From assembly GCF_016026235.1 (NCBI RefSeq), contig NZ_CP065613.1: DNA of 64,000 nt. The stretch is one strand, 5' to 3'. Each line of letters begins with the position of its first letter. The stretch's first letter is position 1. This document shows positions 1 to 28,633 of this stretch, piece after piece. The notes below the pieces were generated by a model that had not been told where the DNA came from, ran no database searches, and saw nothing but the letters and a program-made list of their open reading frames with translations. The stretch comes from Escherichia coli (GTDB lineage Bacteria; Pseudomonadota; Gammaproteobacteria; Enterobacterales; Enterobacteriaceae). A program made the position numbers and the translations under genes.

Positions 1-58
1 ACCCGAAGGTGGTTTCACGACACTGCTTATTGCTTTGATTTTATTCTTATCTTTCCCA

Positions 59-114
59 TGGTACCCGGAGCGGGACTTGAACCCGCACAGCGCGAACGCC
101 GAGGGATTTTAAAT
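59..114 (-). other. Partial tRNA-Leu copy (3' ~56 nt, CCA end through anticodon loop); distal attachment-site remnant of the island
   Basis: 59..113 is identical to 28547..28601 (3' half of the intact tRNA-Leu) and diverges at 114; flank 1..58 matches 28489..28546 with a few mismatches. Confidence 0.8.
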
Positions 115-349
115 TCTACGTAGGATCAATGAGTTACATAGCAGTGCATTGTGAAACTTTGCTGACGTTGAATGGTCGTCTTTGCAACCACTGGCAGAAA
201 ATGGATAGCCGTAGATTGCGTTGAGCACAGAAACAGCACAGGGTAATCGTCTACCTGGTCCTGTAAAGGAGGTTGTTGCCACACAAGCTAAAGCGCTTGA
301 CCTGCCCCCAGTATTCGGTACAACTGTCAGTTAGTAATGGACTGACCCC

Positions 350-1828
350 GTTACTTTATTCGTACCCCTTATAATGGGGTGTTAGCCAGCCAGACCCGGC
401 ATGATTACTGCCCCCAGTCGTCCATGATCCGGGGGGTGATGTCACCGGGTCTGGTGGGGCGCTGGTAACCGCTAATAGGGGTCAGGTCAGGCACTTTTGC
501 CGGGACCGTCTGTAACGTGGATGCCGGTACCTGCTCCCCGTGGTTATCTGGTTAACCCATATACAAGGGAGACAGAATGACCGAATCCAGCGATTACGAA
601 TCCGTCCAGGTCTTTATCGGCGTTGATGTCGGTAAAGATACGCATCACGCTGTTGCCATTAATCGTTCAGGTAAACGCCTGTTCGATAAAGCATTACCCA
701 ACGACGAAAACAAACTCAGGTCGCTAATATCTGACCTGAAACAACATGGTCAGATACTGCTGGTTGTTGATCAGCCAGCTACCATCGGTGCGTTACCTGT
801 CGCCGTTGCCCGCTCAGAAGGAGTCCTTGTCGGATACCTCCCTGGACTGGCCATGCGCCGCATAGCCGACTTACACGCCGGTGAAGCTAAAACTGATGCT
901 CGTGACGCTGCCATCATTGCCGAAGCTGCCCGTACCCTGCCTCACGCGCTACGCACGCTGAAACTGGCTGACGAGCAAATCGCCGAACTCTCCATGCTCT
1001 GCGGCTTCGATGATGATCTTGCCGCACAGACAACGCAGGCCAGCAACCGTATCCGCGGCCTTCTGACCCAGATACATCCGGCACTGGAGCGCGTTCTCGG
1101 TCCGAGACTTGAGCACCCGGCGGTACTCGATCTTCTCCAGCGATATCCCTCACCAGAAAAACTCGCTTCGCTGGGTGAGAAGAAGCTGGCAGCCCAGCTC
1201 TGCAAACTTGCGCCTCGTCTGGGTAAACGCCTTGCAGCAGACATAGCTCAGGCACTGGCCGAACAAACCGTCGTCGTTCCCGGCACGAATGCCGCTGCCG
1301 TAGTACTGCCACGTCTGGCACTCCAGCTCATCACGCTGCGTAAGCAAAGAGACGAGGTGGCGCTTGAGGTAGAACAGCGAGTTCTTGCTCACCCTCTTTA
1401 CCCGGTCCTGACCAGTATGCCCGGAGTCGGTGTCAGGACCGCAGCCAGACTCCTCACCGAGGTCGCCTGCCGCGCCTTCGCCTCTGCCGCACATCTCGCT
1501 GCTTATGCTGGCCTTGCGCCGGTAACTCGGCGATCCGGCTCGTCAATACGCGGTGAGCATCCCTCGCGACGGGGTAATAAAGCTCTCAAACGGGCGTTGT
1601 TCCTGTCGGCCTTCGCCGCGCTCAGGGATCCGCTCTCCAGGGCTTACTACACCCGCAAAATGAGTCAGGGAAAACGACACAATCAGGCGCTTATCGCCCT
1701 GGCGAGACGACGCTGCGACGTTCTGTTCGCCATGATGCGCGACGGGACTTTTTATACCCCGCAGGGGTCATAACATGCTTGACAACTTAATAGGGGCACC
1801 CCCCGGTAGACGATCCTGCCCTATAGTT
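350..1828 (+). mobile_element. IS110-family insertion sequence, boundaries approximate
   Basis: DEDD-type transposase ORF preceded by a ~225-bp structured non-coding leader; 11-bp 'ggactgacccc' present at 339..349 and 1829..1839 suggests the limits; no terminal inverted repeats, as expected for this family. Confidence 0.45.
577..1773 (+). CDS. IS110-family transposase (DEDD/RuvC-like N-terminus, 398 aa)
   Basis: N-terminal 'VFIGVDVGKDTHHAVAI' is the typical IS110 DEDD start motif; C-terminal 'MPGVGVRTAARLL' helix-hairpin-helix-like segment; GC-rich relative to flanks. Confidence 0.85.
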   Translation: MTESSDYESVQVFIGVDVGKDTHHAVAINRSGKRLFDKALPNDENKLRSLISDLKQHGQILLVVDQPATIGALPVAVARSEGVLVGYLPGLAMRRIADLHAGEAKTDARDAAIIAEAARTLPHALRTLKLADEQIAELSMLCGFDDDLAAQTTQASNRIRGLLTQIHPALERVLGPRLEHPAVLDLLQRYPSPEKLASLGEKKLAAQLCKLAPRLGKRLAADIAQALAEQTVVVPGTNAAAVVLPRLALQLITLRKQRDEVALEVEQRVLAHPLYPVLTSMPGVGVRTAARLLTEVACRAFASAAHLAAYAGLAPVTRRSGSSIRGEHPSRRGNKALKRALFLSAFAALRDPLSRAYYTRKMSQGKRHNQALIALARRRCDVLFAMMRDGTFYTPQGS

Positions 1829-1868
1829 GGACTGACCCCACCCCGGTAGACGATCCTGCCCTATAGTT
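1801..1868. repeat. Two direct copies of a 28-bp unit (ccccggtagacgatcctgccctatagtt) at 1801..1828 and 1841..1868
   Basis: Exact 28-bp duplication read directly from the sequence, immediately after the transposase stop. Confidence 0.9.
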
Positions 1869-2075
1869 TGAGTATAGGGGGAGCATATGGGCACACCACG
1901 GTCAATCAACCAATGACTGAGCAAATCAGGCTCAACATTACGGTTGTTAGGACGCGTGTGCCAATCGCCTAGATAACGATAGCCCAATTCCTCAATAAAA
2001 AACCTGACTACGCGCTGTTGAGTTGCGCGTTCACGTTGTCCGACAGTTGTCACTGTTCTTATTACCTTTAACTAA

Positions 2076-27486: not shown

Positions 27487-27566
27487 ATTTATCCTCATGT
27501 ATCTGATTGATATCATGGAGATAATATATATCTGAAGGTGTTTTTATTACGGGGCAGGATTGAAGA

Positions 27567-28307
27567 ATGGAAAAGCTATTAGACGCGTACAAACGGATAT
27601 TACAGGAAGTTGACGCCCAGTCATTTAACCTGAATGAGGATAAATACTCAGGCGTCTTTTTACCCGTGCCCTTTGAAGAATACTGGCACTCACCGGTAAA
27701 AATCATACTGGTTGGACGTGAAACCGCTGGCTGGAATACTCTGAATGGTAAGAACACGATATCACGGGTGCTGGGACTTATACCTGACGTCACCATCGGG
27801 CAGGTGGTTGGAGAGGCTGTAGATCGTTACAGGAATCATCTTCCGGTACAAAATGATGGCACCACGAACCTCAAATCACGTAGCCGCTTCACGCAGTATC
27901 ATTTCCGGCTGGCCCGGGAGCTTAATATTCCTCCTCAGGCTATCGTGTATGCCAATCTACTGGCGTGGGATTACGACGGACTGACCCCTCTCAATCGCCC
28001 TCAAAATGAAGTGCAGGAAGTTATATTAGCCTCGCTGAAGCTGCTGGCGGTACAAATTAAACACCTTGAGCCTGATTTCATCATCTTTGCATCCGGAGCC
28101 CGGAGAACAGACTACATCATAAAACAGGTGCTTACTGAGCTGGGCGGCTATGAGACTTCTGCAGTCATTCCGGGGAAGCTATGGGAGTTCAAAACAGGTA
28201 ATGCAATCTGTTTCAGAATTGCCCATCCACGGGCTATGCGCGGACACCAGAAGTACAGAGATGAGGTGATTGCACGAATTAAGCAACTTTGTACTCAGGG
28301 TGGCTAG
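27567..28307 (+). CDS. Hypothetical protein, 246 aa; weak resemblance to a uracil-DNA-glycosylase-like fold
   Basis: ORF between the integrase and the tRNA; 'KIILVGRETAGW' and 'IAHPRAMRGH' loosely resemble UDG motifs A and B. Confidence 0.5.
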   Translation: MEKLLDAYKRILQEVDAQSFNLNEDKYSGVFLPVPFEEYWHSPVKIILVGRETAGWNTLNGKNTISRVLGLIPDVTIGQVVGEAVDRYRNHLPVQNDGTTNLKSRSRFTQYHFRLARELNIPPQAIVYANLLAWDYDGLTPLNRPQNEVQEVILASLKLLAVQIKHLEPDFIIFASGARRTDYIIKQVLTELGGYETSAVIPGKLWEFKTGNAICFRIAHPRAMRGHQKYRDEVIARIKQLCTQGG

Positions 28308-28491
28308 AGCATTACAGCTTGCTCAGCGGCCCCCTTCCCGGAAGCGTACCGGAAAACAGGCAAAGCGGCCTGGTTCTCTATGCTGGAAGCGACACGTTCG
28401 ATTCGGCATTGCCAGGCTGAAGATTGCAGCTCATCGCACCCCGTGAGCACAGGATATGCACAGGACATGAATTTCAGGCACAAAAAAACCA

Positions 28492-28520
28492 CCCGGAGGT
28501 GGTTTCACGACACTGCTTAT
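28492..28520 (-). terminator. Rho-independent terminator of the glyW-cysT-leuZ tRNA operon
   Basis: Minus-strand hairpin 'gaaaccacctccgggtggttt' followed by a T-run, directly 3' of tRNA-Leu. Confidence 0.8.
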
Positions 28521-28546
28521 TGCTTTGATTATTCTTGTCTTTCCCA

Positions 28547-28633
28547 TGGTACCCGGAGCGGGACTTGAACCCGCACAGCGCGAACGCCGAGGGATTTTAA
28601 ATCCCTTGTGTCTACCGATTCCACCATCCGGGC
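28547..28633 (-). tRNA. leuZ: tRNA-Leu (anticodon UAA), 87 nt
   Basis: Minus-strand sequence gcccggatggtggaatcggtagacacaagggattTAAaatccc...gggtacca; long variable arm and CCA end. Confidence 0.95.

Follow-up and report, generated by a model that had tools for sequence, protein, structure and literature searches.

What occupies the tRNA-Leu gene leuZ in this Escherichia coli chromosome, where it came from and what state it is in are the questions raised by the 64,000-nucleotide stretch of contig NZ_CP065613.1 analysed here (the window). The insert at leuZ, 28,488 bp long, is very probably a pipolin-derived integrative defence island, present as a decayed copy, as judged from its gene order and its similarity to relatives. 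An interpretation made earlier from the letters alone (the sequence-only reading) had described the insert as accessory, loaded with defence genes and flanked at leuZ by a direct repeat derived from the tRNA. This description held, although the pipolin identity and the loss of the family's polymerase gene had escaped it. The element family and the hotspot that it occupies are already described, and near-identical islands are already present in public genomes.

Probable pipolin ancestry of the leuZ island

Pipolins carry a primer-independent family-B DNA polymerase, piPolB, as their hallmark, and their site is the tRNA-Leu between pgsA and yecA (PMC7385651, PMC11551731). Next to the tRNA, at whose 3' part they insert, their core has a recombinase of IntSXT type, accompanied by DUF2787, WYL and orphan genes, and close to piPolB it has one of IntP2 type with an excisionase after it; this two-integrase set has been described as ancestral (PMC11551731). 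The conserved core lies near the integration site and exchangeable cargo lies distally, the latter enriched in type I restriction-modification (RM) systems and PDC-S12 and including, more rarely, hhe and HEC-06 (PMC11551731).

The island of the window resembled pipolins (Redrejo-Rodriguez 2017; Flament-Simon 2020, PMC7385651; Mateo-Caceres & Redrejo-Rodriguez 2024, PMC11551731) in its site, in the position of its tRNA-proximal integrase with flanking orphans and of a second integrase followed by an excisionase, and in its two-module layout and cargo (type I RM, PDC-S12, hhe and a HEC-06-like system). Terminal direct repeats of attachment site (att) type were found, one of them overlapping tRNA-Leu; integration was at the tRNA-Leu between pgsA and yecA; and the cargo between the distal att and the core was enriched in defence genes (type I RM, PDC-S12, a GmrSD-like pair and Hhe). 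A stretch of 15.5 kb was 99.97% identical to FDAARGOS_943, the island was colinear with that of 99COLEC (locus L001), and identity to piPolB-bearing islands ranged from 98 to 99.97% at the DNA level. In both FDAARGOS_943 and 99COLEC a gene for an 866-amino acid (aa) PolB lies between the two integrases, in an interval that holds a full excisionase, an orphan, the polymerase, WYL/HTH, DUF726, DUF2787 and two orphans. The 866-aa protein is annotated as a type-B DNA polymerase in several genomes and gave weak matches to DNA-polymerase PHROGs. The word-indexed database search for distant piPolB returned near-identical proteins only, and a representative library was used instead. The same gene order (orphan, integrase, HTH_17 excisionase, orphan, PolB, WYL, GTPase, DUF2787, orphans and Arm-type integrase) was shared by Edwardsiella tarda, Serratia marcescens and a relative with a PolB of 50% identity at pgsA.

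Several points weigh against this assignment. The hallmark piPolB is missing from the window, so that the assignment rests on descent and synteny and not on the defining marker. The labels IntSXT and IntP2 come from gene position and the literature. The window ends on the left before yecA is reached, and the junction with the chromosome there is taken from relatives; in 99COLEC and FDAARGOS_943 yecA borders the same distal repeat. According to PMC9710591, in vivo proof of excision or integration was lacking for E. coli pipolins. Unlike pipolins, the island also lacks WYL and DUF2787 (both present in the relatives), DUF726 and several orphans, and its excisionase is truncated; unlike the intact relatives, it has an hhe broken by the insertion sequence (IS) IS1 and carries ISEc20 at its distal end. 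Pipolins that lack piPolB alone have been reported as strongly under-represented (PMC11551731). Judged by the hallmark gene piPolB this copy falls outside the family, and it is filed here as a piPolB-less pipolin remnant, a pipolin by descent.

Attachment site and boundaries of the island

The leuZ gene is an intact tRNA-Leu(UAA) at 28547-28633 on the minus strand, adjoined by tRNA-Cys (28646-28719, minus strand) and tRNA-Gly (28774-28849, minus strand), all three identified by ARAGORN and Rfam and forming the glyW-cysT-leuZ operon. Beyond the operon lie pgsA and uvrC, the leuZ-cysT-glyW-pgsA span covering 28547-29549.

The direct repeat pairs positions 1-114 with 28491-28602. Its tRNA part (59-114 and 28547-28602) is 56 nt long without mismatch; the identity noted in the sequence-only reading was thus correct and its length of 55 nt was one short. 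A 36-nt piece of this tRNA fragment occurred exactly twice in the 64 kb when up to 3 mismatches were allowed, and never in 100 shuffles; the same scan revealed no third, internal leuZ-derived att in the window, which would be a sign of tandem elements. The flanking part (1-58 and 28491-28546) differs by two substitutions, at positions 6 and 49, and one 2-nt indel, in agreement with the divergence reported before. The two copies start 28,488-28,490 bp apart. The proximal copy still agrees with the K-12 empty site over some 16 nt more (28473-28490), so that the full repeat is about 130 bp, clipped here by the window edge; it reaches from the anticodon loop of leuZ to a point shortly beyond the terminator of the operon.

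After leuZ come, in K-12, 3'ETS-leuZ, a 3' external transcribed spacer annotated as a small RNA of 67 nt, an intergenic stretch and yecA, which bears out the succession of leuZ and yecA given before and adds what lies between them. The repeated flank (1-58; 28482-28546, minus strand) had been taken for the operon terminator. It does end there, and it is more than a terminator, as the repeat carries the whole 3'ETS-leuZ small RNA (sRNA) sponge. The distal att copy (1-114, minus strand) is accordingly made up of the native chromosomal 3'ETS-leuZ, clipped at the edge (1-58), and the 3' 56 nt of leuZ (59-114), and equals the K-12 empty site. The proximal att copy (28473-28602, minus strand) consists of an element-borne 3'ETS-leuZ allele, with a UCCG loop and 2 nt shorter, and the 3' 56 nt of leuZ. 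Integration would have been catalysed by the tRNA-proximal integrase at the anticodon-loop end of the repeat.

Occurrence among E. coli genomes

A probe of 561 bp spanning the empty site of K-12 was contiguous, and leuZ hence unoccupied, in 3793 of 5426 complete E. coli genomes; about 30% of the genomes had no contiguous empty site. At least 80% of the island, with its first 25 kb as probe, was found in 72 genomes and always near leuZ. The 28 kb is therefore accessory and not core in the species, as had been proposed. For the individual modules, matches covering at least 80% of the probe were counted: piPolB occurred in 283 genomes, the tRNA-proximal integrase module in 348, and the second integrase with the two orphans upstream of it in 237. 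Integrase-free derivatives exist as well, ECONIH1 being an example.

The pgsA-yecA interval with the tRNA Gly/Cys/Leu genes is E. coli defence hotspot #18, occupied in 231 of 1099 genomes (21%; Hochhauser et al. 2023, PMC10121019, S1 Table). That study shares the chromosomal locus with ours, including the tRNA operon inside it, and lists occupancy; the anatomy of the element is not described in it.

Conserved core and decay of this copy

Conserved pipolin core makes up the third of the island nearest to the tRNA, and exchangeable defence cargo fills the other two thirds. At the boundary with the cargo lie two AT-rich orphan open reading frames (ORFs) with a GC content of 0.34-0.37, ORF1 (20734-21966, plus strand), which was found in Edwardsiella and is absent from Serratia, and ORF2 (22369-23499, plus strand), a conserved pipolin core gene located directly upstream of the second integrase in the relatives. 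Neither gave a match in Pfam, PADLOC, NCBIfam, PHROGs or PDB sequence searches, and their homologues formed 13-18 clusters confined to Enterobacterales. An AlphaFold model of ORF2 built with 15 sequences was all-helical and of mediocre quality (pLDDT 64, pTM 0.57), and a Foldseek comparison of this model with the PDB returned nothing below E = 0.5.

Downstream follows the second tyrosine recombinase, in IntP2 position (23643-24779, plus strand), which is intact, has a Pfam Phage_integrase domain and is 98.7% identical to its 99COLEC orthologue. The next gene, an AlpA/HTH_17 excisionase (24922-25050, plus strand), retains the first 46 of 66 codons by tblastn and is cut by an IS1 variant (25051-25818, minus strand). 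This IS1 is 91% identical to the other complete copy of the island; it has no target duplication and its two flanks differ. Beyond it come a 33-codon remnant of a core orphan (25820-25918, minus strand), a small ORF downstream of the tRNA-proximal integrase (26014-26256, minus strand), and that integrase itself, in IntSXT position (26290-27486, minus strand). It is intact, has Pfam Arm-DNA-bind_3 and Phage_integrase domains, is identical over 100% of its residues to the 99COLEC and Franconibacter copies, and is presumed to be the leuZ integrase. Between it and the tRNA lies an orphan conserved in synteny in the relatives (27567-28307, plus strand; phrog_29550, E = 7e-177).

When compared with 99COLEC, 8.6 kb (L001 31940-40539) are replaced in this copy by the single 768-bp IS1 at 25051-25818. 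The replaced stretch held what is missing of the excisionase, then piPolB with an orphan on either side of it, WYL/HTH, DUF726, DUF2787 and two orphans. Accordingly, tblastn with piPolB (866 aa, FDAARGOS_943), DUF2787, HTH (99COLEC) and DUF726 gave no match anywhere in the window. The shared parts are 99.97-100% identical to the piPolB-positive FDAARGOS_943, so that piPolB was lost recently, and the exact deletion junction was found in 0 of the 5426 genomes. One IS1 has replaced some 8.6 kb of core (including piPolB, WYL and DUF2787) and truncated the excisionase, and another IS1 has split hhe. With piPolB and the full excisionase missing, the element is probably decaying, a poorly mobile or immobile remnant. 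It offers a worked example of island decay, in which the replication and excision core and one defence gene were lost to IS1 and the restriction systems were left intact; such a pattern agrees with the domestication of a mobile element into a fixed defence locus.

The tRNA-proximal integrase is 99-100% identical at the aa level in Shimwellia pseudoproteus and Franconibacter helveticus, and near-identical piPolB proteins were listed from Cronobacter, Salmonella, Enterobacter and Escherichia marmotae. Near identity of both proteins across genera indicates recent transfer between genera.

Defence cargo and insertion sequences

The cargo includes a type I RM operon (12919-20427, minus strand), in which HsdR, HsdM and HsdS are all full length. 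It comprises hsdM (18904-20427, minus strand; PADLOC MTase_I), hsdS (17688-18914, minus strand; PADLOC Specificity_I, 1-407 of 408 aa), an embedded YecA-like/PDC-S12 gene (17008-17691, minus strand; full-length PADLOC PDC-S12 and NCBIfam YecA), hsdR (13671-16958, minus strand; PADLOC REase_I, 7-1093 of 1095 aa) and a YgjP-like M48 peptidase (12919-13674, minus strand), the YgjP-like Pfam domain being found in the orthologous peptidase. Target-recognition regions of hsdS and an embedded cold-shock-domain gene vary between the relatives. The gene that separates hsdS from hsdR codes for a paralogue of the chromosomal YecA, full length and with 58% identity, and the yecA gene flanks this very attachment site; this proximity may be due to chance, given that PDC-S12 is reported on other mobile elements.

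Two overlapping DUF262 genes (8775-12264, minus strand; Pfam, with PADLOC matches to HEC-06, Orf5 and the SspE N-domain) lie distally to the operon. The first (8775-10817, 680 aa) has both the N-terminal DUF262 domain GmrSD_N and the C-terminal DUF1524 nuclease domain GmrSD_C that are expected of GmrSD/HEC-06 systems, and the second (10810-12264, 484 aa) has GmrSD_N and DUF7834 in Pfam. Together they are a candidate GmrSD/HEC-06-like type IV restriction pair; the PADLOC HEC-06 matches cover mainly the N-domain.

The anti-phage gene hhe, which codes for a DUF4011 helicase-nuclease, extends over 2076-8588 on the minus strand and is broken in two, its C-terminus lying in 2076-4341 and its N-terminus in 5110-8588. 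These two ORFs match the PADLOC Hhe hidden Markov model at 1157-1911 and 1-1161, respectively, so the single intact gene of about 1911 aa that defines the system is not present and the break falls at model positions of about 1157-1161. The gene is unbroken, with 5736 bp, in 99COLEC and FDAARGOS_943. The interrupting element is a complete IS1 (4342-5109, plus strand) flanked by a 9-bp target duplication, AGTAAATCG, at 4333-4341 and 5110-5118. From these sequences, Hhe would be dead, and the intact type I RM system with PDC-S12 and the GmrSD-like pair may still protect against phage.

Two integrases, an IS110-family element and an IS3 fragment had been recognised beforehand and were all present. 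Three copies of IS1 had been counted as well; two proved to be complete (4342-5109 and 25051-25818) and the third is a 376-bp fragment (12512-12887, minus strand), abutting the IS3 fragment (about 12286-12519, minus strand). The IS110-family element is ISEc20 (about 346-1806, plus strand), its extent being taken from matches in other genomes annotated as ISEc20; its transposase ORF (577-1773) matched the NCBIfam IS110 RNA-guided transposase with 239 bits. It is missing from the corresponding spot in FDAARGOS_943 and 99COLEC and is inserted in the distal end of the island. Directly to its right there is a near-perfect 31-nt direct repeat with 40-nt spacing (1801-1871). The relatives without ISEc20 have a single 40-bp unit, so its insertion went together with a tandem duplication on the spot. 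A sequence of 11 nt, GGACTGACCCC, stands on either side of ISEc20.

Between ISEc20 and hhe, the N-terminus of a second type I hsdR remains (1787-2053, minus strand; PADLOC REase_I residues 1-54 of 1034, E = 5e-16), and it is also found in the relatives. This 54-codon remnant points to an older, lost RM system in the cargo.

A paired 26-nt motif and alternative histories of the island

A 26-nt motif, GGTGTAAAACTGCCGTTGGGGTAATG, is located at 20646-20671 (plus strand), between hsdM and ORF1 and hence at the boundary of cargo and core. It had one match in the window and none in shuffles. Pipolins of E. coli, Edwardsiella and Serratia have another copy, in the same direction, with the WYL/GTPase genes on one side and DUF2787 on the other, so that the pair (27424-27449 and 38209-38234 in L001, 8343-8368 and 19095-19117 in L026, 9911-9936 and 19707-19732 in L027) brackets the second integrase-excisionase-piPolB module in three genera; the core of the motif is conserved and its flanks differ. 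Absence of the right copy from the window is explained by its loss with the IS1 deletion. In the distant pipolin L030 the strict motif fits the right copy only, and a looser related motif appears twice elsewhere, once at the cargo/core boundary, upstream of the orphan ORF there, and once directly behind piPolB.

The pair was considered as the active att sites of a nested element. A chimeric query representing an empty inner site matched one of the 5426 genomes, E. coli strain I4. This candidate was rejected: it is an illegitimate deletion in which both motif copies are kept. Strain I4 is a different piPolB-less derivative, with a 10.5-kb internal deletion between the motif copies that leaves about 120 bp at each end and brings hsdM beside DUF2787 and the tRNA-proximal integrase. 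The inner module was retained in 315 of the 328 E. coli genomes having the DUF2787-side flank. Current independent mobility of the inner module is thus not supported by the genomes compared.

These results bear on the proposal, made in the sequence-only reading from the two integrases and the shifts in composition, that the island grew by serial accretion, two or more independent integrative elements with their own integrases having been stacked at leuZ and fused. Both observations are real. The two recombinases are only about 27% identical to each other, and GC content shows sharp shifts between 0.34 and 0.58 (ISEc20 and the second DUF262 gene stand at 0.57-0.58, the stretch at 21-23.5 kb at 0.34-0.37). 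The 26-nt pair around the IntP2-piPolB module in the relatives could moreover mark an ancient nested insertion, and IntP2 was possibly incorporated later (PMC11551731). Against stacking, only the two leuZ-derived att copies were found and none is internal; in addition, the two-integrase core is kept as a unit across genera, the inner module persists with its DUF2787-side flank in nearly all E. coli genomes that have this flank, and the one candidate for an empty inner site is a deletion. ORF2 stands directly upstream of the second integrase in the relatives as well, so the AT-rich block belongs to the core and is not a separate acquisition. The mosaic appearance is better attributed to cargo exchange, the traffic of IS1, ISEc20 and IS3, and one IS1-associated deletion. 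Serial accretion is therefore improbable, and as an account of recent events it already lacks support.

Also considered was an origin from a prophage, or from a phage satellite of P4-like or PICI-like type, that had degraded and had gained defence genes. P4-like satellites, PICIs and VSP-II-type islands share with the island a tRNA-adjacent tyrosine integrase, a repeat that rebuilds the 3' end of the tRNA and a variable anti-phage cargo. Both integrases match PHROG integrase families, several small ORFs match PHROGs of unknown function, an AlpA-type excisionase follows the second integrase, and prophages, for example that of TUM1857, occupy the leuZ site too. Against these resemblances, no capsid, tail, lysis, repressor or satellite (psu, sid or delta) genes were found here or in the intact relatives, and the latter carry the pipolin core genes piPolB, WYL and DUF2787. 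In the pipolin family, furthermore, the replication marker is PolB and not a primase, and two integrases lie in one conserved core. A prophage or satellite origin is hardly credible.

Origin of the tRNA-proximal repeat and of its 3'ETS-leuZ allele

The distal flank (1-58) is base for base that of K-12, and the proximal flank is a different allele. It follows that the distal copy is native and the tRNA-attached copy arrived with the element, as had been suspected from the divergence of the flank, and that the element rebuilds the 3' 56 nt of leuZ together with the whole of 3'ETS-leuZ. In comparison with the native allele, the element-borne one has a UCCG in place of a UUCG tetraloop, a 2-nt deletion and one substitution.

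The distribution of the island allele was scanned with an exact 42-nt probe specific to it against one genome per species. It was native, with yecA adjacent and no insert, in Pseudocitrobacter faecalis, Phytobacter massiliensis and two other Enterobacteriaceae, whereas in Shimwellia pseudoproteus and Franconibacter helveticus it was element-borne, with an integrase of 99-100% identity beside it. The pipolin-bearing E. coli SCPM-O-B-8794 has in the leuZ T-arm the compensatory pair GTGGG/CCCAC and not GCGGG/CCCGC. As this T-arm variant is native to Pseudocitrobacter and Leclercia, it shows directly that such elements supply the 3' part of the tRNA. Some proximal copies are chimeric or native-like (LR-27 and ECONIH1), which suggests exchange between the two copies of the repeat.

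Six tRNA-proximal copies were aligned, those of K-12, three pipolins, one remnant and the unrelated TUM1857 prophage. All six retain the whole spacer through the U-tract and diverge straight after it. The block AAUCAAAGCAAUAAGCAGUGUCGUGAAACCACC is invariant among them, variation being limited to the tetraloop, which is UUCG or UCCG, and to roughly the 20 nt that adjoin the tRNA. With RNAduplex, long continuous pairings predicted for RyhB (GCACGACAUUGCU) and for the RybB 5' end fall inside this block, and all the differences of the element-borne allele lie outside it. Only the location of these pairings was used; the energies were discarded, as the disregard of intramolecular structure makes the duplexes over-extend. 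In Rfam, 3'ETS-leuZ itself gave no match at gathering thresholds. Pairing of 3'ETS-leuZ with RyhB lowers the level of the latter (PMC6191717). If experiments bear it out, sRNA biology could take an interest in the observation that, in the occupied sites examined, the tRNA-adjacent copy of 3'ETS-leuZ is supplied by a mobile element.

In the literature searched, "pipolin" and "leuZ" were not found together, and neither a whole 3'ETS-leuZ in the att repeat nor the paired 26-nt motif turned up in the part of it devoted to pipolins. A joint reading of the two features, namely that every leuZ element swaps in its own allele for the sponge and terminator expressed by the host, under selection to preserve the sRNA as well as the tRNA, and that the 26-nt pair is a possible recombination site of the second integrase around an anciently nested polymerase module, is put forward as a speculative proposal, with the odds rather against it. 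If confirmed by experiment, the motif would give pipolin biology a hint at what the second integrase may do and where it may act. The 3'ETS and the 26-nt motif are the only parts of the island that might repay experiments.

Chromosomal remainder of the window

From 28.5 to 64 kb the window is colinear with K-12, from pgsA to dgcQ, at 97-98% identity apart from differences at fliC and yedN. The central part of fliC (39119-40026) could not be aligned to that of K-12, which suggests a different flagellin type, and about 1.2 kb with the yedN pseudogene is absent near 48125 as compared with K-12. The sRNA DsrA is located at 60919-61005.

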